Shown here: piece after piece, positions 5,123-61,118 of the stretch
How positions within the stretch are numbered: the stretch's first letter is position 1
Layout: the number at the start of each line of letters is the position of its first letter
IMG/VR virus record: IMGVR_UViG_3300035495_000309
DNA: 64,000 bases
Reading direction: 5' to 3' (one strand)
Source: an uncultured virus (IMG/VR IMGVR_UViG_3300035495_000309)
Taxonomy: Duplodnaviria > Heunggongvirae > Uroviricota > Caudoviricetes
Notes under the pieces: model-generated
The model's database searches: none
Told to the model about the DNA's origin: nothing
Seen by the model: the letters and a program-made list of their open reading frames with translations, nothing else
Translations under genes and position numbers: made by a program

Positions 5123-6468
5123 ATGGATAATAGATCACAGCTGCATGCGAGTATTCGCAAGCGCATGGTCGAACTACGAACGTCGAAATTACCAATTAAA
5201 ATGGACTTGACGACGCTTGATATGACCATTCAGTTTTTATACAAAGAAGGAGCTTTGAAAACAAGAAAAGCTCTGACGAATATAGACAAACTGTTCAAGT
5301 CACTAGATAAGTCCGTATATAAGGAAAGTGAAATTGAACTGACCAACCGTATTTGGCTAATCGAAAAGACTATTGAAGGATATTTACGCGAGGGGTTGGT
5401 CCAAGAAGATGTTATTAAGACATACTGTAAAGAAGATCCAGATTGTGATGATTACAGAGCAAGTATTCTGGATCAAGTAACGACAAATAAACGCCAGATC
5501 AATTATGAAGAATCGAAATACTTATTAAAACAAATCGATGATCGATTGGCGTTTGGATATACGATCACCTTAAAACATATTATCGAAGAATTGTTTTCTC
5601 TTATGGATGAATCTGATGTAAAGAGTTACAAACAGCTCAGTGAGGATTTGTATCAGATCGCAAATTCTATCATCAATATTAAGAGAAGATCCAATTCTTT
5701 GGGAGCAGATCAAACTTTTTCTTTACAAGAAGAAGTCTTTGAGACTGTGTTATTCGATTCTATGGAGAAATTAAACAACCGGAATCGAATCTTTATTACG
5801 GGTATTCGGCATCTGAATACCTTTTTAGCCCCTGGGTACATGAGTAAACGTCTTTATACATACTTAGCATTCCCAGGTGGTGGTAAATCTCAAATTTTGT
5901 TGGACACTGCACTTGATATAAGAAAATACAATGCAGGGGTTCAATGTAAGAATCCAGAGAATCGACCAGCAGTTCTTATGATTACAATGGAGAATAGTAT
6001 TGAAGAGACGATTGAGCGAATCTTTAATATTGTGGCAAGTGATGATGACATAAGAAACTACTCTCCAAAGCAAGTAAAGAAGATGCTGATTAAGCAAGGT
6101 GGATTAACGCTTACTGATAAAAGTAATATTGATATCATCATTAAGTATTATCCAAATAGAAGCATTGATACAAATGACTTATATGGAATCATCCAGGATT
6201 TGGAAGATGAAGGAGTAGAAGTCATTGCGTTAATTCTGGATTATTTAAAGAGAATACGTCCAGCAGAAAAGGGAGAAAATGAAAAAGCTGAGCTTAAGAA
6301 TATCACAAATGAATTGAAGGATTTAGCAATATATTGGGATATTCCAGTAATTACAGCTCAGCAGTTAAATAGAACTGCTTCATCTATTGTAGATGCAGCA
6401 ATTCAAGCAAAGAAATCAGACGTCACGAAGCTCGTCGGACGAGATGGCGTCGCTGGTGCCTGGGAGAT
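5123..6468 (+). CDS. dnaB: DnaB-like replicative helicase, exon 1 (join 5123..6468,7642..8020; 574 aa)
   Basis: Walker A AFPGGGKS, ITMEN, LILDYL, PVITAQQLNR; splicing restores GAWEI-IENSD in frame. Confidence 0.9.
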
Positions 6469-7641
6469 TAACTCAATGGTCTCCCCATACCGTGAGGTGT
6501 GTAAAAATAACCACTTTAATTGCGGGGACTTTCCATTTCACCAATGGACACATTTTATGTGCCGGCTACGCTTCAACTACCAACTTATATCTGGCGACAG
6601 GATAAGGGCAAAGGGTAACTCCGGAGATATGGTAATCAAGGTTGAAGATACGGACAATCCGCAGCCAAGTCAGAATTAAAATTTTAAGTAACGATTTGAT
6701 AGTTTAAATAGAAAGGAGATTTTTATATGGAAAAAATTATGTGGAAAACTTTAAATGGATTTAAAAATATAATAAGTAACACCTATCAAGTTTCATCACT
6801 CGGTGATGTTAGGATAAAGAAAGGTAAGAAGTTATTACATAAAAAGATTGCAAATAAGAAGCATCACCCATATTATGCAGTTTATCTCAAGAATAAAGAT
6901 GATAAAGGTGAATGGGTTTTAGTTCATCAATTAGTAGCTTTTTGTTTTATCAAAATTCCTAAAAAATATGAAGGAAGAACTGACTTAGTACCAGATCATC
7001 TCAATAATAATGGATTAGATAATTATTATAAGAATTTAAGTTGGAAAACCCGCGGCGAAAATGTATCAAAAGCATTTAAATGTAAAGAAATAAATACATT
7101 TGGTGAAAATTGTTGTTGGGCAATTATAACGGATGATCAAGCTAGAGAAATTTGCAAGTATCTTGAGGAAAACCTTTCTTATGATGAAATATTAAAAAGA
7201 ATGAAAATGGAGGATAATAAATCAAATCGTACGTTATTAGTTCGAATCAAAAACAGGATTGCCTGGAAAGAGATATCAAAAGATTATAATTTTAGTAGCA
7301 ATACCAAGTATACTAAAACACAATTGGAAACGATAAGAAATATTCCTAGAATCAGAAGATTAATCTCTGAGGGCAAAAAGAACACTGAAATTGCACATAT
7401 AATTTGGCCTGAGATTCCACATGAGAAAATCGGACCAAAAGCGCAAACGGTAAGTAAAATTCGAAAAGGGCTAATATTCAAAGATATTCTGAACGGTTCA
7501 ACGACTATCGAAAGCATAATCTCTGGAGAAATCCTTAGATGAAGAAGCGAGTAGAGTAGGGAAACCGAAATGAGTGGCTCTTTATATCTGATAAAAGGGT
7601 ATAAAGATGAAGATATAGTCTACATATAAAATTTATATATG
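6469..7641 (+). mobile_element. Group I intron in dnaB (1173 nt) carrying an HNH endonuclease
   Basis: P1 gggagaT/Gtctccc with U-G wobble; P10 tcaatg pairs the 3' exon start cattga; core motifs ttgcgggga, aatccgcagc, ttcaacgacta, aagatatagtct; terminal G at 7641. Confidence 0.92.
6727..7542 (+). CDS. Intron-encoded HNH homing endonuclease (NUMOD4-like N-terminus, HNH, C-terminal helical repeats)
   Basis: YQVSSLGDVR, VHQLVA..F, PDHLNNNGLDNYYKNLSW; own SD gaaaggag. Confidence 0.88.
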   Translation: MEKIMWKTLNGFKNIISNTYQVSSLGDVRIKKGKKLLHKKIANKKHHPYYAVYLKNKDDKGEWVLVHQLVAFCFIKIPKKYEGRTDLVPDHLNNNGLDNYYKNLSWKTRGENVSKAFKCKEINTFGENCCWAIITDDQAREICKYLEENLSYDEILKRMKMEDNKSNRTLLVRIKNRIAWKEISKDYNFSSNTKYTKTQLETIRNIPRIRRLISEGKKNTEIAHIIWPEIPHEKIGPKAQTVSKIRKGLIFKDILNGSTTIESIISGEILR

Positions 7642-8085: not shown

Positions 8086-8427
8086 ATGAACAGAAGACAG
8101 AAAAAGAAATTGATAGGGAGATTAGGTTTTAAAACCTATCACGCATATAAAGCCTATTTGAAACTCTGTAAAAAGTTTTCAGAGTATTTAAGCCTTGGAA
8201 AGGTGAGGATAAATGGTGTAGGTACTCCACCTGACAGTGTTAAAGGTGAACCTGTTACTATACAATTTTCATGCAATTCGTGGATACCAAAAGGTAAGAC
8301 ATTTGAATGTGTTCCAAATATACTTGAGCTGAAAAAGGCATCAAAGAGTTATTCAATTAGAGTATTAGGAGGTGATCAAAATGAACAAAAGGCAGATGAA
8401 GAAATTCGAAAAGAAGTTATGTCATAA
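8086..8427 (+). CDS. Hypothetical protein with MNRRQKKK leader
   Basis: SD aggagg; 113 aa. Confidence 0.75.
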   Translation: MNRRQKKKLIGRLGFKTYHAYKAYLKLCKKFSEYLSLGKVRINGVGTPPDSVKGEPVTIQFSCNSWIPKGKTFECVPNILELKKASKSYSIRVLGGDQNEQKADEEIRKEVMS

Positions 8428-8971
8428 GACATATCAAGGTTATAAGAAAGCAAAGAGTAAAAAGGATACTGAAGATTTTATTATGATGAATGCATCCATG
8501 TTTGATAAGACGATGAAAGCACTTCTCGCTTCAGCATTTCCTAATAGAGAGGAAGAGATCATTCACAGTGATTATTTGGGTCAGGAATGTACAGCTAGTG
8601 ATGTAGTTGAAATCCGTGAGATGATTCAGCGAATCAATGCTGTAAATAAAAATAAAAACATCTTCGGAGTTCCAAGTCAATTCCTTCTTGGTCCATTACC
8701 AATGGAAAAATTAAATGAGCATCCAAACCCAACAGGTTATGGATTAAAATCATTCTATCAGATCTATGATGAGTTCGAGATGGAACAGCCGAAAGAAGCT
8801 AAAGAAATGATCTATGTAACAACCGATCCAACTGGAAAGGAAATAGTTAGCGCTGCGAAAATGGGAATCTTTGATCCAACAGCTGAAACACTAAAAGATG
8901 TTAAGGCTGAGATTGATAAGGAGCAATTGAAGTCTATATTTGATATTACGATGGAGAAGAAAGATGAATAA
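8381..8971 (+). CDS. Hypothetical protein with MNKRQMKK leader
   Basis: SD ggaggtg before ATG 8381. Confidence 0.75.
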   Translation: MNKRQMKKFEKKLCHKTYQGYKKAKSKKDTEDFIMMNASMFDKTMKALLASAFPNREEEIIHSDYLGQECTASDVVEIREMIQRINAVNKNKNIFGVPSQFLLGPLPMEKLNEHPNPTGYGLKSFYQIYDEFEMEQPKEAKEMIYVTTDPTGKEIVSAAKMGIFDPTAETLKDVKAEIDKEQLKSIFDITMEKKDE

Positions 8972-9269
8972 AAGACAAAAGAAGAAATTAGATAGGAAGC
9001 TGGGTTGTAAGCATTATTCTGATTGCAGAGAAAGGATTTCTAACTTAAGAATTCGAATACGAGTTGATTATAATCCAGATCCACGTATTATTGCATTTCG
9101 TGATGCATTTCATGAAAGTTTGGTAGATCTTATGAACCAATTGAATTATGATTTGGAAAATCCCAAAGATGAACTTCCAGATCATGAAGATACTAGTATA
9201 GAGGAGGATTATCCTCCAGATTCTTTTAAGGTTGATGTCCTTACACATCATCGACCCTTGTATTTTTAA
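8964..9269 (+). CDS. Hypothetical protein with MNKRQKKK leader
   Basis: ATG 8964 overlaps the preceding stop; SD ggag. Confidence 0.7.
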   Translation: MNKRQKKKLDRKLGCKHYSDCRERISNLRIRIRVDYNPDPRIIAFRDAFHESLVDLMNQLNYDLENPKDELPDHEDTSIEEDYPPDSFKVDVLTHHRPLYF

Positions 9270-9321: not shown

Positions 9322-10317
9322 GTGTCGAAGATTATTTTGGATTATTCCAATCAACCGAAGCGACAAAAGAAATCTCTTTTGGATGAATTTGATGAGATGG
9401 AGCAGGAAACACAATCTATGTCATTTAATCAATTTCGACCAAAAGAAGTTAAGAAAGATAAGGAAGCAAAAGCTTTAGCAGAAGCAAATCAGGAAGAGGA
9501 AGACGATGATTGGGAATACACCTTATCCCAGTTTCGTACTCCAAAAGTAAAGGCTTCCAAGAATTACCGAAACAGTGATGTGTATGACTTCTTACACGGT
9601 GGAAGTGGTAAGAAAAAGAAGAAGAAAAAGAAAGAAAAAGAAGGCCCCAAAGATTACAATGAGGAGTTTGAAACAGACATTGCTCTGATGCGTAATATGC
9701 TTCAGGATGCAACAAAGTTTACAGATTCCTTACAGAAGCGTTATTACGCAATGGAGGCTTCGAAATCTTCTGCAAGAGGAGTTGGTAAGTTCACAACAGA
9801 TCTTATCAGTTCCATTAACCAATCTCGTAGTGTATCGAGTCAGCTTATCAATAACATCACAAGCTTAAAGAAGAATATCGCAGACCTTAATATGAAGGAG
9901 CGAAAAGAAGCAGCGGCTGCCGCAGCTGGTAGCTATGATGGAGAGAATCTATCTGATTTCTCTTCCAACTTCTTAAAGAAACTGATTCAACAGGATCGTT
10001 CGGATGCTTCCATTTATGGAGATGCAACACCGATTGATGCAGATGAAGATACATTGTATGACAATATTGCACAAATGCTTGCTTCCGAAGATGATCGTTC
10101 GGAAACAGAAGCATATTTAAAATACGAGAATCGAAATGTTGAACTCGTTGCTTTTGTCGATCATAATACAGATGAGTATGAACTTCGTGCAATTGCAGCA
10201 GATGGAGAAGAATTATCAGATTATCCAATTCCTCAGGTTGAGCATTTGGATATTAACCGAAGTACAAGCATTGCGGTTGATGAATATCACAACCGTTATC
10301 GTGTAGAATGGGTTTAG
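9322..10317 (+). CDS. Hypothetical coiled-coil protein with poly-Lys tract
   Basis: 331 aa, SD aaggggg, ACA-N6-TAA at 9277-9288. Confidence 0.8.
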   Translation: MSKIILDYSNQPKRQKKSLLDEFDEMEQETQSMSFNQFRPKEVKKDKEAKALAEANQEEEDDDWEYTLSQFRTPKVKASKNYRNSDVYDFLHGGSGKKKKKKKKEKEGPKDYNEEFETDIALMRNMLQDATKFTDSLQKRYYAMEASKSSARGVGKFTTDLISSINQSRSVSSQLINNITSLKKNIADLNMKERKEAAAAAAGSYDGENLSDFSSNFLKKLIQQDRSDASIYGDATPIDADEDTLYDNIAQMLASEDDRSETEAYLKYENRNVELVAFVDHNTDEYELRAIAADGEELSDYPIPQVEHLDINRSTSIAVDEYHNRYRVEWV

Positions 10318-10340
10318 ATTTTAATCTAAAACAATATTAT

Positions 10341-10598
10341 GAGTAGAAACCCTCTACTTGAAAGTGTGGTACTTCCAAGTATCTTTAGTTACAGGAAACT
10401 TTTTCCTTAAACAACCCCAAACATTGGCCGACTTCCCAGAGTCGGCCTCTTCTCCCCTCAATCTATTAAGAAACATAGAGTTAAGGCTGTATGTAAGCCT
10501 TATACTTCTGGATGGGGATCTTGTGATCCCAAAACGATTAGTTCCTCTCGGTAAGTCGAAAAAGAGGAGACGGGTACAATGACTCGTCTCCTCTTCTT
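10341..10598 (+). ncRNA. Candidate structured phage small RNA (about 260 nt, about 8 hairpins plus terminator)
   Basis: AACA-N6-TG motif at 10330-10341; stems at 10341-59, 10368-83, 10393-407, 10426-47, 10462-79, 10482-502, 10515-30, 10535-58; terminator 10562-98. Confidence 0.55.
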
Positions 10599-10614
10599 AC
10601 CTCTCATTTTGAAA

Positions 10615-11322
10615 TTATTTCCAAGTAAGTCCATTGATATCAAATCTGATTGGCAAATACTTGTTTACATAAGATTCATAAGTGTAAGCTGAATAGCTTG
10701 CATCTGCTGATCTATAAAACAGATCCAAAACTCCCGCTTCTTTTTCCACAACCTGCTTGATGTCAAGTTTTGCATAGTATTTCTTCTTTGACTTTGTCGG
10801 GTTCAAATTTGTATTTGTAACCATGATAGTTGACAAAGAAGAAACCAAGCTTAACCCTTCTACAGGTCCAAATGCATAACTAGTTCTTACCGGAACGTTA
10901 TCAGGGATCGAGAACGGAAGGTAGAACGTCTTTAAATACAAATCTCTTGTATCATCAAACGAAGCTTTCTGTCCATTCAAACGGATAATTCCCCAAACTT
11001 CCAGTTTTCCACTCCGGTATAAATCGTAATGCACTTCAGCATCCAAGAACGAAGAACCAATCTGCTCTAACGTGTCAGCATCTTCTGTTCCTGAATATCC
11101 TGAATATTTACAAGTAAAAATATAACTTGTTTTATCAATACCATCAATGCCTTCTGCTAATGTCCAACGCTCAGACATCATGGTGAGTTTTTCATCAGCC
11201 TGTACCGGTGTTGTATTGATGATGTCTGCACTATCGACAATTGGAAAGTAAGGCACCATCTTTACTTCACCAGTATCCGGATCTTCATATTTCGTTAATA
11301 TAAATCCATTAAATGCTTTCAT
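10615..11322 (-). CDS. Putative tail fibre/baseplate accessory protein
   Basis: DLYRSGKLEVWG resembles the Y.SG..E.WG motif of tail-fibre C-terminal domains; structural context. Confidence 0.5.
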   Translation of the reverse strand: MKAFNGFILTKYEDPDTGEVKMVPYFPIVDSADIINTTPVQADEKLTMMSERWTLAEGIDGIDKTSYIFTCKYSGYSGTEDADTLEQIGSSFLDAEVHYDLYRSGKLEVWGIIRLNGQKASFDDTRDLYLKTFYLPFSIPDNVPVRTSYAFGPVEGLSLVSSLSTIMVTNTNLNPTKSKKKYYAKLDIKQVVEKEAGVLDLFYRSADASYSAYTYESYVNKYLPIRFDINGLTWK

Positions 11323-11339
11323 TTTCGAATTTCTCCTTT

Positions 11340-12299
11340 CTAAGCACCAATGATTCGGATAATCTCAGAATATAAGGTGTTAATACCTCTAGTATTCTTG
11401 ATAAACTCCATCATTGCTGTTGAATTGATAAGGAATCCTCCCAAAAGTACATTTGCAATGCAGTAGTAAATATATGGGAAGGAATCGATTGCTAATGTCG
11501 CACCGGTGCCATAAGAAGCAACCCAACGCTCAAAGAAATACCGGAATTTCAAATCTCCCATCTTTGGGTTAGATTTTGCGGTGTAATTAACGTATTCATC
11601 AATCGTTCTCACCTTTGCTGCAGAATACATATTATCCGCAAGGGAAATCGTTGTTTCACTCGGATTATTGCAAAGAGCAACGGAATATGCATGTACAAGG
11701 TCCGGATTAGTAAGACCTAAGATTCTCTCATAGAAGAATCTTGCAGATGTGTAATTTGCTGTATCAAACGCATCTTTATCAAGCGATAATGCATACTCGC
11801 GGTTTAATATCCGAAGAATCATTTGAGAATAGATATTTGCCATTGCTTTTATAAAGGAAGCATTCTTCGTAAAGTACAATGGCTTTGTAAAGTACAAAGA
11901 AGCAACATACGCAGATTCCATAAGCGTATAGAGCTTCTTCATTTCAATCGTAAGCTGCATGTCATCTCCCTTTGACATTCCGGAGAATTCATTAATAAAG
12001 ATACATGCTGTTGTTTGACCACCAATGGTAAGTACTACAAAGGGAAGAGCCACTGTAACATGGTCTCTCTTATTGTAGATTAATCGTATCTTCCCCTCAT
12101 CAAATGCTCTTAATACATAATTTGCAAGGGGAGATATATTCGTTTTGGTGATCAATAAGTACTGGGCTTCAAAATAACTTTTATCAAGGGCAACGCCATT
12201 TTTGATTGCCTTTTGAATTTTCGCCATTAATGACGCAGATTTATTCAAATTCTGAAACATCGTAGAATCAGAAAGACTGGCTTCTGTATAATAACCCAC
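11340..12299 (-). CDS. Hypothetical, probable virion protein
   Basis: 319 aa, SD gaggtg, ACA-N6-TAA at 12334-12345. Confidence 0.7.
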   Translation of the reverse strand: MGYYTEASLSDSTMFQNLNKSASLMAKIQKAIKNGVALDKSYFEAQYLLITKTNISPLANYVLRAFDEGKIRLIYNKRDHVTVALPFVVLTIGGQTTACIFINEFSGMSKGDDMQLTIEMKKLYTLMESAYVASLYFTKPLYFTKNASFIKAMANIYSQMILRILNREYALSLDKDAFDTANYTSARFFYERILGLTNPDLVHAYSVALCNNPSETTISLADNMYSAAKVRTIDEYVNYTAKSNPKMGDLKFRYFFERWVASYGTGATLAIDSFPYIYYCIANVLLGGFLINSTAMMEFIKNTRGINTLYSEIIRIIGA

Positions 12300-12412
12300 T
12301 CTTATTCACCTCATTTCATAGTTTACTTTCTACTTAAGTCAATGTTTTTTGCTGCTAAAATGCTTAAAAAACATAGATATAAGCAGAATTAGAAAGGATG
12401 TGAACATGTAAT

Positions 12413-21215: not shown

Positions 21216-21311
21216 ATAAAAACTCTCCTTTCCATATTAAAAACTTGTCAAACCTATGATGAAATGCCATTTATTTTCGAAGACTTAATTTTAAAGAAAG
21301 GAAGTGATACT

Positions 21312-21711
21312 ATGGATAATACAAGTACTCCGAAAAATCGGATTATCTGTATTAAAGGACGATATTACGATACTGGTACCAAGAATAAATCCTTCTTGCA
21401 AGTTGCACTGGACTTAAAAACTCTTGGTGTAAAAGAATGGTATTTTATGCTTGAGATCAAAGATCCGTATCTTGTCAATGTAGATCCTTTCAAGACGAAG
21501 AAAGATTCAGATGAACCTGATCTGACAAAAGATCAGATTTCAAGAATCACGATAGAGTGCGTACATAATATCTGGTACTATTTAAGGGAAGTTGTAAGGA
21601 TACCATCTGCTGGTTCTCCAGAAGGCGTTCCTTATATAGCAAACCGTGGAAATATAGCACAAACTTGGTGCTTGTTACACGGACTAGATAGTTGGCTCTG
21701 TTTACCTCGGC
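21312..21711 (+). CDS. terL: Terminase large subunit, exon 1 (join 21312..21711,22033..22479,23646..24988; 729 aa)
   Basis: N.WYYLREVVRIP; splicing restores Walker A LPR-QQGKT. Confidence 0.88.
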
Positions 21712-22032
21712 GAACCTTGTTGCCGCGAAATCCAGCAATGGATTGGAAAAACCTCTTTAACTGCGGGAACGTCTTGTTATGTCTTAACTACCAACCAAGA
21801 GTGGTGACATTCTTGGGGCAAAGGGTAACTCCGGAGATATGGTAATCAAGGTTAAGAATAGAGAAAATCCGCAAGCAAGTATCCTAAGAAATTAAGACGA
21901 AGCTTCAACGACTAGGGAAAGGCAAGTAGAAATACTTGAACCGAGTAGGCTCAATCATAGGGCGAAATGTAGGTGAAATAATCCGAAATGGGAGGCTCCG
22001 AGAAATCGGATGATGATATAGTCTAAGTTATG
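21712..22032 (+). mobile_element. Group I intron terL-I1 (321 nt, ORF-less)
   Basis: P1 cggC/Gccg; P10 accttgtt pairs the 3' exon aacaaggt; P2 aatcca-gcaa-tggatt; core ctgcggga, aatccgca, ttcaacgacta, gatatagtct; terminal G at 22032. Confidence 0.88.
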
Positions 22033-22479: not shown

Positions 22480-23645
22480 TAAATGCGGCGTGATTACAGG
22501 GTGACCTGTAATACAAACCCCTCTAACTGCGGGGACTTTCTAAAAATCTTTAACTACCAACCAAGAGTGGTAACATTCTTGGGGCAAAGGGTAACTCCGG
22601 AGATATGGTAATCAAGGTTAAAGATAGATCGATCCGCAGCTAATCACCCATTTGTGTGAATAATTATCACCACAACTTTTATCTAACGGAGGTGATTATT
22701 CACATGAATAAACTTTTAGAAGAATTTTATAAATTTAAAGAACATGATGATGAAGAATTTAGATTTTTGAAATACCCTGGAATTGTAAAGTATCAATACG
22801 TAATATCTAATTACGGAAAAGTATTCTCTTTTTCAAGAGTAAAAGAATTGAAATTTCATTATGATAAGGATGGATATAAACGAATTGGGATCATTCGACA
22901 TATTGATGGAAAGAGATTAAAATCTCCTGTTGCAGTTCATCGGATGGTCGCAAGTACATTTCTTCCTGAGCATGATGATGAATTGAATGTGGTGAATCAT
23001 ATGGACGGAGATAAAACGAATAATTATTATAAGAATTTAGAGTGGACTACAAGTGGAGAAAATACAAGACATGCATTACGAATGGGACTTCAAGTAAATT
23101 CTGGTGTGAATGCACCAAATGCAGTGTATAATGAAGAAGTAGTTAGATTCATTTGCAAATCCCTTGAATCTGGAATGGACTGTTTTCAAACTTATTGTGC
23201 ATTAACTGGAGAAACAAAGGTTACAAATAACGCTATATATGCATTAGTATTCTCCATAAAATCCGGTAAACGTCATAAAGAAATCAGTTCTGAGTATGAT
23301 ATACCAAATTCTGTTTTATCTCAAACAAAGAAAAGATTCACGAAAGAAGAAGAGGATAAAATAAAAGAAATGATACTTTCAGGTTGTAAAACCACTACTA
23401 TTGTAAAATATTTTGGTGGTAAAACGACAAAAGACAAAATAGGGAAAAGGGTTAGTGATAAAGTGCGAAATCTTCGAAAAGCATTGGGTGTAAGTTCAAC
23501 GACTAGGGAAAGGCAAGCAGAAAGTGCTTGAACCGAGTAGGTCCAATCATAGGACGAAATGTAGGTGAGATAATATCAAGAAACCGAAACGGGGGGCTCT
23601 CTATTTTAGAGATGAAGATATAGTCTAAATAGTTTCATACTATTG
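22480..23645 (+). mobile_element. Group I intron terL-I2 (1166 nt) carrying an HNH endonuclease
   Basis: P1 tcacgT/Gcgtga with U-G wobble; full core motifs; terminal G at 23645; splicing restores ILT-STPGD. Confidence 0.9.
22704..23531 (+). CDS. Intron-encoded HNH homing endonuclease
   Basis: YVISNYGKV, VHRMVASTF, VNHMDGDKTNNYYKNLEW; SD ggaggtg before ATG 22704. Confidence 0.9.
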   Translation: MNKLLEEFYKFKEHDDEEFRFLKYPGIVKYQYVISNYGKVFSFSRVKELKFHYDKDGYKRIGIIRHIDGKRLKSPVAVHRMVASTFLPEHDDELNVVNHMDGDKTNNYYKNLEWTTSGENTRHALRMGLQVNSGVNAPNAVYNEEVVRFICKSLESGMDCFQTYCALTGETKVTNNAIYALVFSIKSGKRHKEISSEYDIPNSVLSQTKKRFTKEEEDKIKEMILSGCKTTTIVKYFGGKTTKDKIGKRVSDKVRNLRKALGVSSTTRERQAESA

Positions 23646-34875: not shown

Positions 34876-36942
34876 TTAACCTTCGTAAGTGCCAGCAGCC
34901 TTCTCGGCCTCAATCTCCTCACGGTATTTATGAAGTGGACTCATATCGATCCATTCTTTAAACATTGGATCGAAGTATCCAGTACCGTTTCTCTTAGAGA
35001 TATCGAGATTTGTCATCTGACGTTCCAGCTGCTCAAATGTCATACCAGTTGTTACTGACTCATTATTCTCAACGACCTTGGTAAGTCCATAGAACTTGTA
35101 ATCCGGTAATCTCGTACGACCAAAGTTTGGACGTTTTTGTACGTTATTCGGTTTGCGACAGAGACGATTTAACACAATCTCACCAGCAGCAACCGGTACA
35201 TTCATGTTACCTTCTACGAATATGTCAAGGAGTTTCTGACTAATCGTATCAATCGTAACTTCGTCCATATCCTCACGCTTCTCAGAATCAAGGAGAGCAA
35301 TGAGGTCATAAAATGGCTTGGTAAGCGGGTTGTTATTAATGGAGATCTCAAAGATTGGTTGATCCTCATCAATATCTTTCAGAGGAATATAACCATTATT
35401 TGCCTCCAGTATTGTAGAAGTTTCAGATCTGATATAGATCTTCTTTCCATTCAATACAGAAGCCTCAGTCATCTCACCAGTCTTTGTATTTACAATGTAG
35501 AATCTTCCCGTATCAATGTAAGTATTATAAGTGGAGTTTGGATCGAGCTCTTCTACTTTCTTAATCTCATCAGGCTCGATAAAGATTGCAAGCTCTTTCG
35601 CATTCTTAATTCCATCCAGTAACTTAATCTCTTCACCCTCCAACTTGAAGTTCTTGTTGAAAGCATCTGAGAACTCGATACGTTCAGACTTTGTAATCAG
35701 AAGATGTTTCGTCGATAAGACATTCTGTTCAACATCCTTTGACCACTGCTCTGTAATAAAAACTGAGAATCCCTTTGCGATATCGTAATTGTAATTTACG
35801 ATCTCTCCTACACAAACCGGGCATACACGATTCTGTCCACAGCAACAAGTCACTGCAGAACGAACCTTAATCTTCTTACCCACCAATTTTGAATTCTTTG
35901 TATCGACAAGCTTAAAATCATCCATATCTTCATCATACATATATTTCCCACGAAGAAGATTTAAGTGCTTGTGAGACTTGATTTCATACGTAACTGTGAA
36001 GTCTGTTCCACAGTTGTATTCCTTTGTCCAAATCTCTAAGCTACGAACTGCAAGGTTTAGGGTCTTACAGAAGTAACCTACAGGGCCCATCTCTTTATTA
36101 TTTGCGAGGACAGGTTTTCTTGCACCTAATGCATCAATATACATATAGGACGGACGATCTAATCCATCAATAAGAAGCCCGTTGTTGATTGGGTAAGTTA
36201 CGATCTCATTATTAAGAGTCGGTCGCATACCTACCATAATCATAAACTCTACAAGCTGCTTCTCTTTTAATCCTGTACCTGAACGAATCAGAACAGAGAT
36301 TGGATTATTCTTGTCATTTCGAATTTTCTCAATAAAACGAACCTGCACCTGATGAAGTTTATCTTCAATCTCAGCTGGCTGCTCGGTTCCTTCGAATTTT
36401 GTATTGATCATCTCCCGATATTCGGGATCCATATACATCTGCTGGAAGGTACTTTCATCGTAATGAAGTCCCATGATGATCGAAAAGTCTGTACTAACAG
36501 CAGCAACATAAGCCGTTGTCTTTGCACAGAATTTGTTAATATCAATATTCTTGACGTGATACTTACGGAGTACCGTCAAGATGTGTTCGTTAATAAAATC
36601 ATTTACCTTTGGTGTCTGTTCTGGTTGAATGATAAAAGAATCATCCATGAAATCAAGATCACCAAGTAACGAAAAAGGATACCAAATACAGATGTTATCG
36701 AGGAATAAACGAAGCTCTACTTTATACTTCTTTCCTCCCTCTGTAAATTTAAAGGTAACCGGATATTCACGACATTCTTCAATGTCAATACATCCCCGCA
36801 CGATATTCCAAATACGAGTAATGAATGATTCATATTCCTTTGGGGATGTCGTATATTTATCAATCTGATAAATCGGGTTTAAATATTCTCGCAACTGTTC
36901 GACAGTCTTAATGCGAGGTACTTCTTTGTTGATATCTACCAT
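34876..36942 (-). CDS. Phage multisubunit RNA polymerase beta-prime subunit, C-terminal half (probably the non-virion RNAP)
   Basis: VGMRP..PI..GL..GARK...GYF (bridge helix), CGT, VRSAVTC...VCPVCVG (Zn site), QNVLSTKH (trigger loop); lies downstream of an early-type promoter. Confidence 0.85.
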   Translation of the reverse strand: MVDINKEVPRIKTVEQLREYLNPIYQIDKYTTSPKEYESFITRIWNIVRGCIDIEECREYPVTFKFTEGGKKYKVELRLFLDNICIWYPFSLLGDLDFMDDSFIIQPEQTPKVNDFINEHILTVLRKYHVKNIDINKFCAKTTAYVAAVSTDFSIIMGLHYDESTFQQMYMDPEYREMINTKFEGTEQPAEIEDKLHQVQVRFIEKIRNDKNNPISVLIRSGTGLKEKQLVEFMIMVGMRPTLNNEIVTYPINNGLLIDGLDRPSYMYIDALGARKPVLANNKEMGPVGYFCKTLNLAVRSLEIWTKEYNCGTDFTVTYEIKSHKHLNLLRGKYMYDEDMDDFKLVDTKNSKLVGKKIKVRSAVTCCCGQNRVCPVCVGEIVNYNYDIAKGFSVFITEQWSKDVEQNVLSTKHLLITKSERIEFSDAFNKNFKLEGEEIKLLDGIKNAKELAIFIEPDEIKKVEELDPNSTYNTYIDTGRFYIVNTKTGEMTEASVLNGKKIYIRSETSTILEANNGYIPLKDIDEDQPIFEISINNNPLTKPFYDLIALLDSEKREDMDEVTIDTISQKLLDIFVEGNMNVPVAAGEIVLNRLCRKPNNVQKRPNFGRTRLPDYKFYGLTKVVENNESVTTGMTFEQLERQMTNLDISKRNGTGYFDPMFKEWIDMSPLHKYREEIEAEKAAGTYEG

Positions 36943-37000
36943 TATTCTCCTCCTAAAAGGAGTGTTGCCCAGATGGTTTCCAGGCAACACTTAACTCTTT

Positions 37001-38866: not shown

Positions 38867-39790
38867 TTAATCTGTATAAGATTCACCATAACCCTGACCA
38901 ACAAGGGCATCTGTTGTAAGGTCATTAAGAACAGACTCAAGAGCAATATCTGAATTGTCATCCTCTTTTGTCTCTCCTTCTTTTGGAAGATCATTAACCC
39001 ACTTCTCAAGAGCAGCCATGTAACGACGTTTCCAATTCGTATACTGCTTCTCCGGAAGTCCATTAATAATTTTAAATGAAGGTGGATCAACATAAATGCC
39101 GACACGGTTATCATCCTTCATAACTTTCTTTGACCAGCCATCCGGTACATTCGGGAAGTCATAGATCTTATCAAATACAACACGCGCAGTGGAGTAAAGC
39201 TTTCCATACTTTACACCGTCACGGTACCGGTCGGATTTCGATCTTGATGATGGATGTCCAGAACAAGAAGCCATAGTCTTATAACCCTTTTCGTTGAGCT
39301 TATCGATCATTGGCTTGATGTCATCATCGATGTGACGATCTCCACCCTCAGTAAATGCTTCATCACCATCTTCAAAGATTGCAGCTTCATTGCCCTCTTC
39401 AAATACCGGCTCATAAGAAGTCTTCATTCCACATTCTTTCATAAGCTGCTCGATCTCTTCAGCATTCTCCTTATATTCCTTTGCTAAAGGAGATGCTTCA
39501 TTCTTTGGAGCAGCATCCGGCTTAGACTCAGATTTTGATGAGTCCAGCTGCTGGTTTGTTGCCTTTTCTTTTTCCTCTTTCTTTAATTTAAGAGAATCAT
39601 ATTCGTTATCGACTGCTTCTGTTGTAAGAATATTCTTCTCATAAACTTCATCAGGCGCAGTAACCGGAAGCATAGCTCCGACTGCCTGACCATCTTCTTT
39701 TATAGCGCTCACGCCTTCTACCTCCGTTTCTACAGATTCATTTATATTATTACCCGTATTATCAAATAACTTTTCTAGGTCACCATCCAT
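38867..39790 (-). CDS. Probable head protein: acidic propeptide-like N-terminus plus TYW3-like domain
   Basis: IDDDIKPMIDKLNEKGYKTMASCSGH; ACA-N6-TAA at 39824-39835. Confidence 0.55.
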   Translation of the reverse strand: MDGDLEKLFDNTGNNINESVETEVEGVSAIKEDGQAVGAMLPVTAPDEVYEKNILTTEAVDNEYDSLKLKKEEKEKATNQQLDSSKSESKPDAAPKNEASPLAKEYKENAEEIEQLMKECGMKTSYEPVFEEGNEAAIFEDGDEAFTEGGDRHIDDDIKPMIDKLNEKGYKTMASCSGHPSSRSKSDRYRDGVKYGKLYSTARVVFDKIYDFPNVPDGWSKKVMKDDNRVGIYVDPPSFKIINGLPEKQYTNWKRRYMAALEKWVNDLPKEGETKEDDNSDIALESVLNDLTTDALVGQGYGESYTD

Positions 39791-39898
39791 AAGGATTTCC
39801 TCCTTCCTTTGGTTTGTTCTTGCTTAAAGAAATGTATTTTCGATTTCTTGGGATAAAAAAAGAAGCGCAACCATTTCTAGTCACGCTTCTTTCTTCTT

Positions 39899-43628: not shown

Positions 43629-44076
43629 CACTTGTGTTAATCTTAATATCTCTATTAAGGTCAGACTATATCTTCATTTACTATATCCTGTTACCAGATA
43701 TAATAAAGCTTGCTGTTTCGGTTTGTTTCAACCTACCTTTCGCCTGCTATCTTAGGCCTACTCGCTTCGTGTAAGTATTTCAACTTACCTTATTTTCAAA
43801 CCAGCTACAAATGTATTTAGAGATTTCTCTCATCCTGGTTGTCTAGCTTTCCCTAGTCGTTGAAGTCATATCTCATCATTGTGAGATGTTTCCTTGCGTC
43901 GATTATCTGTATCTTCAACCTTGATTACCATATCTCCGGAGTTACCCTTTGCCCTTGGACTGTCACCATTCCAAGTTGGTAGTTGAAGCTTAACCAGCAC
44001 ATCTTAGATGCGTTTACCTGTCACGGTAAAATTTCCCCGCAGTTAAGCAAGTTTTAGACGAACTATGGTCTCCAGA
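43629..44076 (-). mobile_element. Group I intron gyrB-I2 (448 nt, ORF-less)
   Basis: P1 gacggaT/Gttcgtc; P10 accat/atggt; full core; P9 cttaata-gaga-tattaag; splicing restores DADIDG-YGIG...RYMP. Confidence 0.9.
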
Positions 44077-45332
44077 ATCCGTCGATATCCGCGTCAGTGG
44101 ATATAATTATCTTGTTATAATACAGACGTCGGATATCAAATGACTGCCCAATTCCAGTATGAAGAACTCTGACGTATTGCTTCCACTCTCCATTCTCCAT
44201 AATCTCTGGAAGTGATTTCTTAAAAGCATTTGCAGTAACTCCACGGAAACCAAAGATTGCCTGAGTAGCTGCATCTCTACCATTAACCATGGAACCTGCA
44301 GCTGACTTTCGTCCCTCAATGAGGAACAACTCTTTGTACTTGTTTCCGGTGTTGTTGCACTTGATAAAGTTCGCTAACTCGTACTCTGCAAACGTATCTA
44401 CTTTCTTCGATACATTTACTGACTTTGCTTTCTGTAACTCTATTCTTGCTTTTGCATTTGCTTTTACTACTTTAATGATTGCCTGTAATCTTGCCTGATC
44501 ATTTGCAAAGAAGTCTGTTAATGCTTTCGATGTCATATCTTTAAGAACTGGTCGTAAGTTCTCATTCTGGATACGATTCTTTGCATTACCCATGAATTGT
44601 ACCTGGGCATTTGTAGACAGATTTACTACAAGCTTTAATCCAGCTTTTACATCCTGGAATAAGATGGGTGTCTTTGCTCTTTGTGCTTCTGATAAGGAAT
44701 CTCTTGTTTGCTGCTGGAAATACCGGCAGATGACTTCCTCTACAGATTCAACATGAACACCACCATCATCAGTTTGTGTGAAGTTACAAAAAGACCTTTC
44801 GTCTACTTCCATTCCCTCATCATAAGCGAATGCAAATGAAAGACTTACCTGCTTTTTCATCTTTTCTTTCTTCGTCTTGACTTTTCCATTGTCATCAACG
44901 ATGTTTCGTTTAATCTCCTCTACGATATTCTCTTTCGCAGATAAAGAGATTGGTTGTACAATGAGATCCTTTGGATTTTGGATATAAGAGAAAATCATAT
45001 CCGAAAAATCTTTTCTCTTAATGGTTTCCTTCTTAATAATCTTAAGACCTTCCCATTCCTCCAAATGGAACTCAATATTGTAATCAAGCTGGTAACTCAT
45101 AAGAGTAACCCACTCTCTTACTTTGTCAAAAGGAAGATGACTTCCAGCACCAAGATATATAGGATTCGAAATGAATGATACGATGGTACCATGTTTCTTT
45201 CCTTTCTTAGTTGGGATTCCTTTGGTATCTCCTACCTTCTGACCATCTTTAAACTCAATCTTATGATAGTAATCACCACGATAAGTTTCAAGTGAGAAAT
45301 AGCTACTAAGTGCGTTTGTAACAGTGATGCCG
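44077..45332 (-). CDS. gyrB: DNA gyrase subunit B, exon 2
   Basis: GITVTNALS, GGVH, ELFLIEGRKSAAG, TDADIDG. Confidence 0.92.
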
Positions 45333-46523
45333 CTCCTATTTCTAGGATAGACTATATCATCAATTATATATCCTATTACCAGATATATCATTGCCTCCCG
45401 TTTGGGCATATTTCAGCCTACATTTCGCTCTATTATTGAGCCTACTTGCTTCGTGTAGATATTTCAATCTACCTTATTTTCAACCAGCCTACAAATTGTA
45501 TTTAGAGATTTCTCTCAATGCTGATATCTAGCTTTCCCTAGTCGTTGAACACAACAGAAATAATTATCAGCGATTTACAGATTGCATGGATTTATGATTT
45601 ATATTTTTCATATCAATCACCTTTCCTTTAGAACTTATATTCTTTACTGATGCTTACCCAAGTTTTTCTTTGTTTGATAGAGTAAATTATCGTCATAGAT
45701 ATCCCTAGCTTTTTCGAAATTTCTTTAGCTGTTTTCCCTTTCTCCAACAACTTACAAATTTTCTTTACCTCCTTTACAGAGACTTTAGCCATAGGATTTT
45801 CTTCACCTATCAACGCTCTTGTATCATTATCTCTTGGAAAATAGTACTCCTTAGAAACACTCTTCCAAATCGTACCATTTTTAATTTTAGAGATATATGA
45901 TTGATTGACTTGCATCTTCTTTGATATTTTTCCAACTCGAACTTCATTTTGAAGCATTTCACAAATCTCACGTACAATCTTCTCATCTTTCAGGTTTCCT
46001 TTCCTCAAATGAGTCCTATACGCATGATGTGTATTTTCTGCTGATGTTGACCAAGTCAGATTATGAATGTCTGGATTATCCTTATTTCCATCTTCATGAT
46101 TTACTTCAGGATAATTATTAGGATTTGGAATAAATGCCTCGGCAACGAGTCTATGGACTTTCCTTGTATATTTCTTTCCATTAAAAGTAAGAGATACAAT
46201 CCTGTATCCATTTTTATCCAAACCACCAGCCATCTTCTTTCCAGTTTCTGCAATAAATACATAACCGGGAGATGCAATCTTGTATTTAGTTTTACATCCG
46301 TTAATATAAATCCATGCTTCTTTGTAATCTAATACTATACTCATAATTTTTCTGTCTTCGTTGCGTCGATTGATCCAACTTCAACCTTGATTACCATATC
46401 TCCGGAGTTACCCTTTGCCCCAAGAATGTCACCACTCTCGGTTGGTAGTTGAAGCTTACGGATTCGTCCCCGCAATTAGAGAGGTTTTGGCATATGCTTT
46501 TCAGCATAAGGGTGCCTGTGTTA
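45333..46523 (-). mobile_element. Group I intron gyrB-I1 (1191 nt) carrying an HNH endonuclease
   Basis: P1 ggtgT/Gcacc; full core; P9 tccta-gaaa-tagga then terminal G; splicing restores SGEFGV-GITVTNALS. Confidence 0.9.
45628..46344 (-). CDS. Intron-encoded HNH homing endonuclease
   Basis: VHRLVAEAFIPNP...VNHEDGNKDNPDIHNLTW; two C-terminal HTH-like repeats. Confidence 0.9.
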   Translation of the reverse strand: MSIVLDYKEAWIYINGCKTKYKIASPGYVFIAETGKKMAGGLDKNGYRIVSLTFNGKKYTRKVHRLVAEAFIPNPNNYPEVNHEDGNKDNPDIHNLTWSTSAENTHHAYRTHLRKGNLKDEKIVREICEMLQNEVRVGKISKKMQVNQSYISKIKNGTIWKSVSKEYYFPRDNDTRALIGEENPMAKVSVKEVKKICKLLEKGKTAKEISKKLGISMTIIYSIKQRKTWVSISKEYKF

Positions 46524-46891
46524 ACACCGAACTCACCACTGCTTGCACCACCCTGATCACGGAAGAATTTACTTCCAGATTGCAGTTTGGTACATACTAT
46601 ATCGATCGGATAATCCTCTTCTGGGATTCCACGACCGTTATCTTCAATCGTTACTTTATCAGCCAGCCTGTCATAGCTGATATTAATTAAGAATTTCTTA
46701 TCTTCTCCAATAGACTTTAAGTATTCCCAGCATTTCGGATCAATGCCTTCATCAATGGCATTTTGTGCTCCCTCTTTGAATAAGTGGAAAACACCCAAAT
46801 CTCCGAATTTCTGTAGATATAAATTCGTCTTTGTTTGTATCTTTTTCATGTCATCTTCGATATACATGACACGAACGTCTTTATTCGACAT
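46524..46891 (-). CDS. gyrB: DNA gyrase subunit B, exon 1 (spliced product 843 aa)
   Basis: E..QNAIDE, DNGRGIP, SGSKF (GHKL ATPase); AACA-N6-TG at 46924-46935. Confidence 0.92.
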
Positions 46892-47047: not shown

Positions 47048-47569
47048 TTATGAATACCAGGTGCCAAGCGCCTTCTGATTCTTCTTGTTCTTCTTCTTTT
47101 TCTTCTTTCTGTCGGCTTTCTCCGCGATCGCTCTCATAGACTTGTAAACCTTCGGGAACTGGTTTGTCTGGAATGAAAGCGTTGTCAGGAAGTTTGTTGT
47201 CTCACGATCTGCACCGATTGCACAAGAGATCATCTTACCCTGGCTGATTGCCTCGGTCATATCCTCTGTTCTCTCCTGTACATCATCCAGGAATCTGGTC
47301 GGGAACTTACGTCCACAAATCGGGCACTTTCCGATCTTGCCGTTATCGGAATACTCGAAAATCGGCTTCAGATTACCCTTCTTATCGATGATGTGATGAC
47401 GGCACATCTCACGCGCGATTCTCTTCTCCTGCTTTGATCCAGTAAGCTTATACTTACCATTCTTCTTTACCACCATTCCGGTGATAAACTGCTCCGGTGT
47501 CTTATTACCGGTGGTTCTCATTAAGTCCTTTGTGGTAATGAGTTTTCTGTTGTTCTTGTTACTTGACAT
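47048..47569 (-). CDS. Basic Zn-ribbon protein
   Basis: CRH...CPICG; poly-Lys C-terminus. Confidence 0.75.
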   Translation of the reverse strand: MSSNKNNRKLITTKDLMRTTGNKTPEQFITGMVVKKNGKYKLTGSKQEKRIAREMCRHHIIDKKGNLKPIFEYSDNGKIGKCPICGRKFPTRFLDDVQERTEDMTEAISQGKMISCAIGADRETTNFLTTLSFQTNQFPKVYKSMRAIAEKADRKKKKKKNKKNQKALGTWYS

Positions 47570-53696: not shown

Positions 53697-53773
53697 ATTA
53701 GCCTATTAAAGAATTGTCCATGATTGAAAATGAAACCTGAACTCAAGTATAAGGCTTATGTTAGGGAAAGGAG

Positions 53774-54409
53774 ATGAGAAAATTGGCAAAAGAGCTACCA
53801 AACATTACATATGACACAAGCGGGAAAACAGCTATTATAGATTCCCCAAGTTCAATGTATATGCTTCCGTTTGAGAAGGATGAAGAATACTTCTCTAATT
53901 TAGAATCAAGAAATCGCTTCATTAAAAAGACAGAAGCGTTGATTCGGAAAGATAAGCGATATAAGAAGTATATCAATTATTTAAAGAAAAACGTAAAATT
54001 GAATCGATGTCAGGTGTTATCTAACCTGACAGATAAAGATTGTACTATAGAAATGCACCACGGTCCAATCTTTACACTCTATGACATCTGCGATATCGTC
54101 ATCGACTATTACCTTCGTAGACACTATAAGATTACAACCTTTGCTATTGCGGACACAGTGTTGAAAGAGCACTTTCGGAATCATATACAGGTTGTAATGT
54201 TATCCACAACGATTCATCAAGAAGTGCATGACCGCGAGCTTTTTATCAATGTGAAACAAGCTTGGGGTGATTTGAATGCATTTTTAAAGAAATACGGAAT
54301 TACAGAGGATCTAAAGGAGAAATACAACCGGTATGTAGATCGTTCTCTGATGATGGATTCGACAAGTTATGAGCTTCTAAAATTGTCGGATAAAATCGTA
54401 AATGGATAA
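53774..54409 (+). CDS. HNH-like fold protein, paralog of 62772..63464
   Basis: C...IEMHHGPIFTLYDI...LSTTIHQEVH; ACT-N6-TAA at 53741-53752. Confidence 0.65.
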   Translation: MRKLAKELPNITYDTSGKTAIIDSPSSMYMLPFEKDEEYFSNLESRNRFIKKTEALIRKDKRYKKYINYLKKNVKLNRCQVLSNLTDKDCTIEMHHGPIFTLYDICDIVIDYYLRRHYKITTFAIADTVLKEHFRNHIQVVMLSTTIHQEVHDRELFINVKQAWGDLNAFLKKYGITEDLKEKYNRYVDRSLMMDSTSYELLKLSDKIVNG

Positions 54410-59893: not shown

Positions 59894-61118
59894 TTTGATT
59901 TTCCTCCTTAATCTTGTACTGCTCTAAAGCATTATCATAATAACCAGCTGCTAAACGATCTTCGAATTCTTCGAATGTTTCAGGAGCTGGGTCATTGTTA
60001 TTGACATGTCGACGCCCAAATTTAAACATAGATTCTCCAGACTTCTTACGTTCTTTCTTAATCTTGCTGTAAATTCTTGCATACGCCCCATGTACGAATT
60101 TTGGATTAAACGGCTTTGACTCCTCTGTTTGAGTTAATATATAGCCTTTCTCTCTGATATCACCAATCTCTTCTTCTTGATCTTTCCTGGAAATTCGTTT
60201 TCTGATATCGCGGAACGAATACTTCTTTCCACATGTATTACAAATCAGATTATTAAACTCCTTATCATAATAAAGAACAGAACTTGGTGAGCATTGGCAC
60301 TGGAACTGCTTAAACTTTACAGAATAGATGTATGCATAATCCAAGATTACAATGCTTCCATCATCTCGAAATCCCCAGTTTACATAATTCGTAGAATTAA
60401 TTCCAACATCACCAATCATGAAATCTGTTGCAATATCTGTAAGAATCTCTCCCATACGAATCGTGTTCTTCCAGAAATCATCGATTGTGAAGATTTCTAC
60501 ATATTCAAACACTGCAATGAGTCCGTCTGCATATGTCTCATAACACTTGATCACATATGGTTGTAATGGAATTGAGTAAATAAACTCTCGCTTATTATCA
60601 ATCTTTCCATCATCATCACATGCAATCTTTATTACATATCCATCGACCATTCCTGCCCAACGATTCGTTCCACCACCTAATGGGGAATATTCTTTTCCCC
60701 ATTCATCCAACTTCTCTCGATATAGAGAAATCTTCTGATTATTCGTGATGGTAAACGTACGCTGAATCTTCTCGATTTCCATTGCCTGCTCTACGGTAAA
60801 GATCTCAAGCAACAAGCTCCGATACACTCTCTCCTTTGGATAATACTTCGGAGCCGCTGCTTCGATATCTTCATCGGTAATTCTTCTGGAAGAGAAAGTA
60901 TCTTCCTCTTCCTTTTCATCTTTTCCAACCTTAACACCAAATTGATCTTCTGGATTTTCCGGATAAATTCTACTGGCATTGATTGGATCATGCTCTTTTA
61001 AATACTGATCATAATTATACTCCTCGGCTAAAGTTTCATCTTCTTCTAACTGTGCTAATTCCGCAGCTAAAGATTCTCTTTCAGCCTGAGATAACATCTC
61101 TCCAATATTAAATCCCAC
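59886..61118 (-). CDS. Protein-kinase-like enzyme with C-terminal Zn finger
   Basis: LGGGTNR, VIKIA, N..E, VFEYV, GDV.....NWG, ILDYA; CQC...CNTCG. Confidence 0.75.
   Translation of the reverse strand: MGFNIGEMLSQAERESLAAELAQLEEDETLAEEYNYDQYLKEHDPINASRIYPENPEDQFGVKVGKDEKEEEDTFSSRRITDEDIEAAAPKYYPKERVYRSLLLEIFTVEQAMEIEKIQRTFTITNNQKISLYREKLDEWGKEYSPLGGGTNRWAGMVDGYVIKIACDDDGKIDNKREFIYSIPLQPYVIKCYETYADGLIAVFEYVEIFTIDDFWKNTIRMGEILTDIATDFMIGDVGINSTNYVNWGFRDDGSIVILDYAYIYSVKFKQFQCQCSPSSVLYYDKEFNNLICNTCGKKYSFRDIRKRISRKDQEEEIGDIREKGYILTQTEESKPFNPKFVHGAYARIYSKIKKERKKSGESMFKFGRRHVNNNDPAPETFEEFEDRLAAGYYDNALEQYKIKEENQNG

Follow-up and report, generated by a model that had tools for sequence, protein, structure and literature searches.

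The 64,000-nt stretch of DNA analyzed here (the window) comes from an uncultured virus of the Caudoviricetes (IMG/VR record IMGVR_UViG_3300035495_000309). Within it, we studied the gap between two convergent genes as a candidate small RNA (sRNA) gene. A preliminary description of this DNA had put the gap at about 300 nt; it occupies 10318–10614 and measures 297 nt. The following features were identified or predicted at the locus.

9322–10317, + strand: upstream gene, 331 aa, no PHROG or Pfam match
10330–10341, + strand: P1, late-promoter core AACA-N6-TG (AACAATATTATG), with G10341, where pairing in H1 begins, as the predicted +1
10341–10482, + strand: 5' part of the predicted long RNA, with hairpins H1–H4 and a weak H5
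10341–10359, + strand: H1, loop AACCC, from fold and sequence
10368–10383, + strand: H2, loop UCCA, from fold and sequence
10388–10412, + strand: H3, from fold and sequence
10426–10447, + strand: H4, stem GGCCGACU/AGUCGGCC, loop UCCCAG
near 10462–10478, + strand: H5, weak, from the fold
10472–10483, + strand: P2, late-promoter core AACATAGAGTTA; H6 begins at its predicted +1, A10483
10483–10549, + strand: body of the predicted short RNA, made up of H6, a 13-nt spacer, H7 and then single-stranded AAAACGAUUAGUUCCUCUC
10483–10501, + strand: H6, stem AAGGCU/AGCCUU
10515–10530, + strand: H7, stem GGGAUC/GAUCCC
10550–10612, both strands: bidirectional intrinsic terminator, stem 10550–10601 with an outer 6 bp (GGUAAG/CUUACC) and an inner 14 bp
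10615–12299, − strand: convergent late operon, with a late promoter at 12346 (36 nt upstream of the start) and its stop at the shared terminator
10615–11322, − strand: convergent gene, 235 aa, second gene of that operon, ending at the shared terminator
11340–12299, − strand: virion structural gene, 319 aa, phrog_21032, first gene of that operon

The window belongs to a jumbo phage, and a near-identical viral contig measures 257,734 bp. Since the 319-aa virion protein adjoining the gap is 23–27% identical to proteins of AR9, PBS1 and BpSp (Bacillus phages) and of Staphylococcus S6-like phages, the phage is, by sequence, a distant member of the AR9-like group. A multisubunit RNA polymerase (RNAP) beta subunit is encoded within the window by the open reading frame (ORF) 34876–36990 (phrog_3015 and phrog_2962).

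Predicted tandem late promoters and transcript ends

Late promoters of phage AR9 have the consensus AACA-N6-T(A/G), the final base of which is the transcription start; they are used for structural genes and may lie within earlier operons, giving continuous expression (PMC5312081). Both P1 and P2 fit this core, with its last base as the predicted start. The AACA-N6-TR core occurs 59 times in the window, counting both strands, and 14 of these occurrences fall in the 7,079 non-coding bases, so that its density is 2.5-fold higher in non-coding than in coding sequence (1.98 versus 0.79 per kb). For six of the 14 non-coding cores, a start codon with a Shine-Dalgarno (SD) sequence follows 17–36 nt downstream on the same strand, and these six include both divergent structural-gene promoters at 12300–12412. 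Close upstream of the 319-aa gene, the core motif was found in 13 of 18 related loci, with an A-rich stretch ahead of AACA.

Twelve gene-proximal sites, six from the window and six from relatives, went into a weight matrix from which P1 and P2 were left out, and we scanned both strands of the window with it (~128,000 positions). The eight highest-scoring positions were the six in-window training sites together with 10472 (+) and 10330 (+); P2 ranked 4–6 and P1 ranked 7–8, and the score fell from 14.0 to 11.7 after rank 8. Because P1 reached this rank with the candidates excluded from training, its assignment is well supported. The preliminary description had placed an AACA-N6-TG promoter here with its +1 at 10341, on the first base of the first stem, and both the matrix rank and the position of the motif bear this out. 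An extended form, AACA-N6-TR-AGTAGAA, which was derived after the sites had been seen, gave exactly three matches in the window (10330 +, 12346 − and 26575 −) versus 0.00 in 100 shuffles; in this extended match, P1 is identical with the two structural-gene promoters at 12346 and 26575. Among the matches listed for the extended pattern in viral contigs (at least 117 stretches), nearly all were attributable to chance, and this phage was represented by the 26575 site only. Sigma-70-like promoters between 9000 and 12500 numbered 13, close to the 12.0 expected.

Other promoter sequences were noted in the window. At 12300–12412, back-to-back late promoters (AACA at 12346 on the − strand and at 12370 on the + strand) serve the divergent 319-aa and 1134-aa genes, an arrangement retained in two related loci, L009 and L010. 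A possible variant late promoter, ATACA-N6-TA at 39836 (−), lies 36 nt upstream of the gene 38867–39790; its score (11.5–11.7) is the next highest below those of the eight AACA sites. Upstream of 47048–47569 (−) and 61118–62533 (−) we found a common motif, ATCAACTTGAA-N7-9-TATATAT(T/C)ATCTATTTAG, which is similar to the AT-rich class of early (virion RNAP) promoters in AR9 and is a candidate early consensus for the clade. A similar ATATAATATCTAGG precedes small inserted genes of L009.

The predicted transcripts of P1 and P2 form a hairpin from nucleotide 1, their initial 36 nt folding to −6.9 and −9.1 kcal/mol, whereas transcripts from the six mRNA promoters reach 0 to −4.7 kcal/mol over the same length and have free 5' ends. 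Of the window's 59 core motifs, only five are followed by a hairpin at nucleotide 1; P1 and P2 account for two of them, and the remaining three lie in coding sequence. In Bacillus-type hosts, a stem-loop at the extreme 5' end shields RNA from 5'-end-dependent decay, and a 5' hairpin combined with a long terminator stem is the design of a stable RNA.

At the 3' end, the GC-rich stem of the terminator has a U tract behind it in either direction. On the − strand this is U5, which adjoins the stem immediately, and on the + strand it is the weaker UCUCAUUUU. A simple terminator scan did not list it. The terminator is shared by the hairpin array and the convergent late operon, and equivalents were found at the same place in the related loci L009, L010 and L011. 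Neither the scan nor the sequence gave a terminator-like site on the + strand between 10317 and 10550, and the array therefore doubles as the 3' untranslated region (UTR) of the gene 9322–10317.

By these features, the gap would have its own promoter, its own terminator and no translated ORF, as an independent sRNA gene does. We consider it likely, with an appreciable margin of doubt, that a discrete late non-coding RNA is made here. The preliminary description had proposed a late + strand RNA of about 260 nt. The late, non-coding, + strand character is in keeping with the promoter class, the 5' hairpins, the lack of an ORF and the presence of a like unit in two other lineages, all of it judged from sequence and comparison. 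A discrete + strand unit is thus probable, but P2 had been missed, and because of this second, internal promoter, two nested RNAs are likelier than one.

Folding, strand and coding capacity

The gap had been described as about eight consecutive hairpins followed by a terminator. Every stem named there is present; our folds give six solid hairpins and one weak one, plus the terminator. On the + strand, the whole gap folded to −90.3 kcal/mol (z −6.11) and the region 10483–10610 to −48.1 kcal/mol (z −5.02), with 0 of 200 shuffles as good in either case. The 5' part, 10341–10482, gave z −3.34 when folded alone, and 1 of 200 shuffles was as good. The z value of the gap was the most negative among the 19 intergenic gaps in the window, others of which reached −5.4 and −5.25 (40 shuffles each). 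About half of the folding signal comes from the terminator, since z changed from −6.11 to −3.02 when the array was folded without it (10341–10552; 0 of 200 shuffles as good).

No copies of the hairpins were found elsewhere in the window, where two 14-nt matches were at chance level (E 0.057 each). The palindrome of H4 was compared with bacterial genomes to see whether it imitates a CRISPR repeat or an element of the host; among the matches listed (at least 120 stretches), there were single palindromic sites in unrelated taxa and no array.

The − strand of the gap folded equally well or better (−95.9 kcal/mol; z −4.71 for the whole gap and −3.43 for the array without the terminator, the latter with 0 of 200 shuffles as good). 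With z near −3.0 on the + strand and −3.4 on the − strand once the terminator is removed, the strand is not assignable from folding; structure does not identify the functional strand, which counts against our + strand reading. Such values would suit a − strand RNA, for example a read-through 3' UTR of the 235-aa gene carrying purine-rich, SD-like GAGG stretches, or an element acting as DNA (an origin, inverted repeats that bind protein, or a packaging site), and one long − strand hairpin contains a G-U pair whose + strand counterpart is an A-C mismatch. However, there is no late-promoter core on the − strand inside the gap, and transcription in that direction would meet the terminator with its U5 tail before it entered the array. 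In the terminator stem, a G-U pair becomes an A-C mismatch on the − strand. The hairpins, moreover, all differ from one another and none is repeated in the window, unlike protein-binding iterons. We therefore regard a − strand RNA or a DNA element as very improbable.

We also considered whether the gap encodes a small protein, either the 74-aa ORF 10358–10582 (+), the 19-aa basic C-terminal part of it starting from GTG 10523, or the 40-aa ORF 10354–10476 (−). These frames are open, and GGGGA lies 4 nt ahead of GTG 10523. However, this GTG lies within H7, and no ORF in the gap is preceded by an SD sequence, the 74-aa and 40-aa starts included. In L002, a locus 99% identical to the window, the gap differs by one substitution and a 1-nt deletion only, both of them in the H6 loop; these changes leave the H6 stem intact and shift the 74-aa frame. 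None of the 74-aa, 40-aa and 23-aa frames matched Pfam, and no homologous frame was found in the relatives. A search with the 74-aa frame against 1.84 billion representatives gave two weak matches (E 1.9e-5 and 8.6e-4), both to short stretches of proteins of 1,264 and 1,494 aa. Conservation of the 74-aa ORF as a protein, which the preliminary description had named as an outcome that would speak against an RNA, was thus not seen: the frame is shifted in L002, belongs to no family and has no small homologue. By sequence, there is no credible ORF in the gap, and we consider a small-protein gene hardly credible.

Related loci and phage setting

Related loci were gathered through the neighboring 319-aa protein from viral, metagenome and genome contigs. 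The order of the 319-aa gene, the ~235-aa gene and the convergent ~325-aa gene is retained down to ~49% identity, and the gap between the convergent genes differs among loci as follows.

Window: 297 nt
L010: 137 nt
L011 and L013: 47 nt
L021: 34 nt
L009-type (L009 and L016–L019; five loci): insertion of small genes, ~1.5 kb

The short gaps of 34–47 nt contain the bidirectional terminator alone. In the L009-type loci and L010, an AACA-N6-TA core lies by the shared terminator on the strand equivalent to the window + strand, and is followed by a hairpin from +1/+2, a single-stranded C-rich stretch (ACCCCCUC and UCCUCUUUU, respectively) and then the terminator; the single-stranded pyrimidine-rich stretch reads UUAACCCCCUCAAAAAAGG in L009 and GUCCUCUUUUAU in L010. 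The predicted RNAs of L009 and L010 are ~115 and ~105 nt long, with z values of −7.4 and −4.1; of the remaining core motifs in these loci (13 and 9), only one and none, respectively, have a 5' hairpin. The P2 RNA and the L009 RNA are collinear: a hairpin of 19 and 20 nt, a spacer of 13 nt in each, a hairpin of 16 and 17 nt, a single strand of 19 and 21 nt, and then the terminator. In L010 and the window alike, the promoter is located 12–15 nt past the stop codon of the 325/331-aa gene. In a search of 551 nt without filters, a covariance model of the L009-type RNA matched best at 10483–10603, end to end and from the +1 of P2, with a weak score of 18.3 bits.

These comparisons suggest that the window, the L009-type loci and L010 have a conserved plan at a conserved place within a subclade, homology being not demonstrated. 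Copies of the window type (three) and of the L009 type (five) are 97–99% identical within each group, which explains the lack of covariation reported below. In a MAFFT alignment of the three RNA types, the 5' hairpins were one column out of register, and pairs were for that reason not counted on it. For the 235-aa protein, we found three related proteins only, on contigs of up to 2 kb; metagenome contigs gave none and viral contigs gave near-identical copies only. Neither blastn of 9800–11400 nor tblastn of the 235-aa protein matched any of 50,697 phage records. AR9 and BpSp do not have this locus, and an 850-aa gene follows the virion gene there.

The same comparisons bear on a reading in which the gap has no trans function. 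It would then be a variable spot that gains and loses small cassettes; the hairpins would stabilize or insulate the 3' end of the upstream operon or be remnants of old terminators, and the promoters would be relics of a decayed insert or fire into the terminator; promoters firing only into the terminator could insulate the converging late operon transcriptionally. That the locus differs in each lineage (from 34 nt to the inserted genes listed above), that homology is not established and that covariation is absent are consistent with this. So are the role of the array as a 3' UTR in any case (no terminator intervenes between the stop at 10317 and 10550), the resemblance of H4 to a GC-rich terminator stem lacking a U tract, and the lack of specific complementarity to ribosome-binding sites (RBSs) described below. 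On the other side, the two best non-training late-promoter sites of the window are both here and on the same strand, and both directly precede a hairpin at nucleotide 1, as do ~5% of core motifs. The plan of promoter, 5' hairpin, C-rich stretch and terminator recurs with other sequence in the L009-type loci and L010, and a single terminator hairpin would be enough for 3' protection. On balance, we think the absence of a trans function somewhat unlikely, for the insulation variant as well.

PHROG and Pfam matches in the window include, besides the RNAP beta subunit, a DnaB-like helicase, a split gyrase, a PhuZ-like tubulin and several virion proteins. The G+C content is 34–44%, and the RBSs are strong and of Bacillota type (AAAGGAG, GAGGTG). 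A scan for tRNA and tmRNA found 0 genes. Three neighboring small genes upstream of the locus (8086–8427, 8372–8971 and 8940–9269, all +) share the N-terminal motif MN(K/R)RQ(K/M)KK(L/F)xxKLGxKxY, and two of them start within the preceding ORF; their products are basic and make up a paralogous family, for which neither PHROG nor Pfam gave a match. An element of 80–120 nt is present in five copies that are 80–96% identical (6571–6668, 21749–21862, 22515–22634, 43910–43991 on the − strand and 46368–46487 on the − strand). Several copies overlap the 3' ends of ORFs, namely the DnaB-like 5123–6679, 21264–21845 and the N-terminal piece of gyrB, 46391–46891, and an HNH endonuclease ORF (6727–7542) comes after one copy. 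gyrB itself is in two pieces, 46391–46891 and 44063–45409, with another ORF in between. The element resembles a mobile intron or homing cassette family; no group I or group II intron was found in Rfam at the gathering score.

Proposed transcripts and C-rich pairing

The C/U-rich nature of the loops and linkers, noted in the preliminary description, was confirmed. Loops and linkers of 10341–10482 include AACCC, UCCA, AACAACCCCAAAC, UCCCAG and CUCUUCUCCCCUCAAUC. Six of the seven CCC triplets have an unpaired probability above 0.9, and the 110 unpaired bases comprise 29 C versus 11 G. None of 6,374 sliding windows exceeds the CCUC count of this region (six in 266 nt), and the C-runs fall in the top 0.45% of sliding windows. 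When compared with dinucleotide shuffles of the region itself, CCUC alone was enriched (P 0.025). The C/CU enrichment of the unpaired parts is real, yet largely compositional.

Combining these observations, we propose the following scheme. The AR9-type non-virion multisubunit RNAP of the phage would start at the tandem promoters P1 (10341) and P2 (10483), and transcription would halt at the bidirectional terminator 10550–10612 shared with the converging structural operon. This would yield two nested RNAs of ~270 and ~128 nt with a common 3' end, and transcripts of the upstream gene would have the same sequence as their 3' UTR. The hairpin at nucleotide 1 and the terminator stem would guard against 5'- and 3'-exonucleases in Bacillota-type hosts; with both ends protected, the RNAs should therefore accumulate late. 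The least certain step is action in trans through the exposed C-rich and CCUC stretches (the H1 and H4 loops and the linkers 10413–10419, 10448–10460 and 10543–10549), which may pair with G-rich sites such as the SD regions of host or early phage mRNAs. Function by C-rich base-pairing is our best single guess, and a tentative one. For the whole statement, the late RNA unit together with the pairing mechanism, we would put the probability at roughly 0.35.

Several results weigh against this proposal. We tested four single-stranded segments for pairing with the region from −30 to +15 of 53 genes in the window, using 200 shuffles per segment. Mean and best duplex energies with these 53 phage RBSs were not above those of the shuffles, the fraction of shuffles at least as good being 0.29–0.985. 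RBS windows paired ~2 kcal/mol better than internal windows, with antisense controls showing the opposite; the pyrimidine-rich composition of the segments and the purine-rich composition of the RBSs suffice to explain this advantage. The anti-SD silencing put forward in the preliminary description thus found no support, as pairing with the phage RBSs was no better than that of shuffled segments. Nor did the Rfam scan that it had called for match any family, RsaE/RoxS included: there were 0 matches at the gathering score in the 64 kb, and a local search of 10200–10750 at E ≤10 gave no RsaE-type match, the best hits (E 0.075–0.57) being terminator look-alikes.

The comparison of loci adds to these points. 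Relatives with a neighbor protein at ≤55% identity have a terminator-only gap of 34–47 nt. The candidate promoter of L009 scored 8.6 with the matrix (rank 3 of 18 kb), and that of L010 was outside the top 12. Covariation was found in 0 of 38 pairs of the L009-type RNA, and one L009-type change, in L017, disrupts a pair. A default search of 165 kb with the covariance model of this RNA did not find the window RNA and returned generic terminators at 20–27 bits. On L010 the model was not specific, with a better score on the wrong strand.

A separate observation concerns the 3' arm of H6 and the bases beyond it. The 14 nt at 10494–10507 are perfectly complementary to 53745–53758 (+), in the 5' UTR of the gene 53774–54409 (phrog_12252) and 16–29 nt ahead of its ATG; the blastn-short E value of 0.057 is at chance level.

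The RNA might instead be made and bind protein, as a decoy for a binder of C/CU loops, or serve in late virion assembly or packaging. Several distinct hairpins with C-rich loops and linkers and the six CCUC motifs are in line with such a role, as are late expression next to the structural operon, rapid sequence change with the plan kept, as in structural RNAs, and the lack of specific mRNA complementarity. Known protein sponges, however, have a repeated identical motif, which is not found here, and no candidate binding protein was identified. The length, which varies from ~105 to 270 nt between lineages, is ill-suited to a fixed structural role, and the unit is absent from more distant relatives. 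We consider a protein-binding or structural role unlikely. A joint reading of the data can also be formulated, and we hold it to be similarly unlikely: an AR9-like subclade would have a fast-evolving late RNA gene, transcribed by its own non-virion RNAP, whose CCUC/CCCC motifs mimic the anti-SD end of 16S rRNA for a late translational shut-off. The 5'-hairpin-capped RNA, sharing the terminator of the structural operon, would block or soak up G-rich RBSs of host or early mRNAs, and the unit would have grown from ~110 nt to two nested RNAs with six motifs in this phage.

Some features of the proposed RNAs are known from other systems. RNAIII of Staphylococcus aureus has C-rich loops. The packaging RNA (pRNA) of phage phi29 is transcribed from an early promoter at the genome end, has a multi-helix fold and forms rings on the connector. 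Like the gap RNA, it is a phage-encoded structured RNA of similar size from a Bacillota phage, and its sequence drifts while the fold is kept; the gap RNA, by contrast, has no Rfam match, and no likeness to the pRNA fold is shown.

The Bacillota sRNAs with C-rich regions (RoxS/RsaE, FsrA and CsfG) share with the gap unit short hairpins, unpaired C-rich stretches and a Rho-independent terminator. The gap unit differs in being phage-encoded, in its AR9-type late promoter rather than a sigma-A promoter, in having more hairpins and two nested forms, and in lacking both an Rfam family match and complementarity to phage RBSs beyond chance; no target for it was found. In RoxS and FsrA, the C-rich regions are the target-binding parts and bind G-rich SD regions (PMC8216469).

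Among jumbo phages, a study by ONT-cappable-seq describes intergenic and 5'-UTR-derived sRNAs, 11 in all with three of them intergenic, in the Pseudomonas phages 201phi2-1 and phiKZ (PMC11512511). These resemble the gap unit: they are units of <250 nt in phages with their own multisubunit RNAPs, with a terminator close after the start, and they are conserved by position and not by sequence. They were obtained from transcripts, whereas the gap unit is predicted from sequence, belongs to an AR9-like lineage with an SD-rich genome of Bacillota type and AACA-N6-TR promoters, and is flanked by converging genes, with a bidirectional terminator that it has in common with the operon opposite. The late units of AR9 agree in core motif, spacing, start base and structural-gene use; unlike them, the gap promoters drive no ORF, and the clade has an extra A-rich stretch upstream of AACA. 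In the AR9 report, some late promoters are internal or antisense and the 5' UTRs measure 26–491 nt; its main text does not contain the words "small RNA", "noncoding" or "hairpin" (PMC5312081).

Little work has been done on the sRNAs of lytic phages. In a word search, the main text of a 2025 review of phage-derived sRNAs contained none of the terms jumbo, Bacillus, Gram-positive and lytic phage (PMC12197685), and in the literature searched jumbo-phage sRNAs are described from Pseudomonas phage transcript maps only (PMC11512511). Intergenic sRNAs of jumbo phages are therefore already known (PMC11512511); the lineage and the promoter class are new here, with none described in the literature searched. 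The gap probably represents a new phage sRNA family, as judged from the sequence. The AACA-N6-TR promoter class with its upstream A-rich stretch reaches a large uncultured clade, with a virion protein only 23–27% identical to that of AR9. If the proposal is true, the gap would hold a testable RNA gene that is defined by its sequence and controlled by a late promoter of AR9 type; it would give a handle on the use of late non-coding RNA in such phages, together with a design rule for finding further units: a late promoter, a hairpin at +1, a terminator and no ORF in between.

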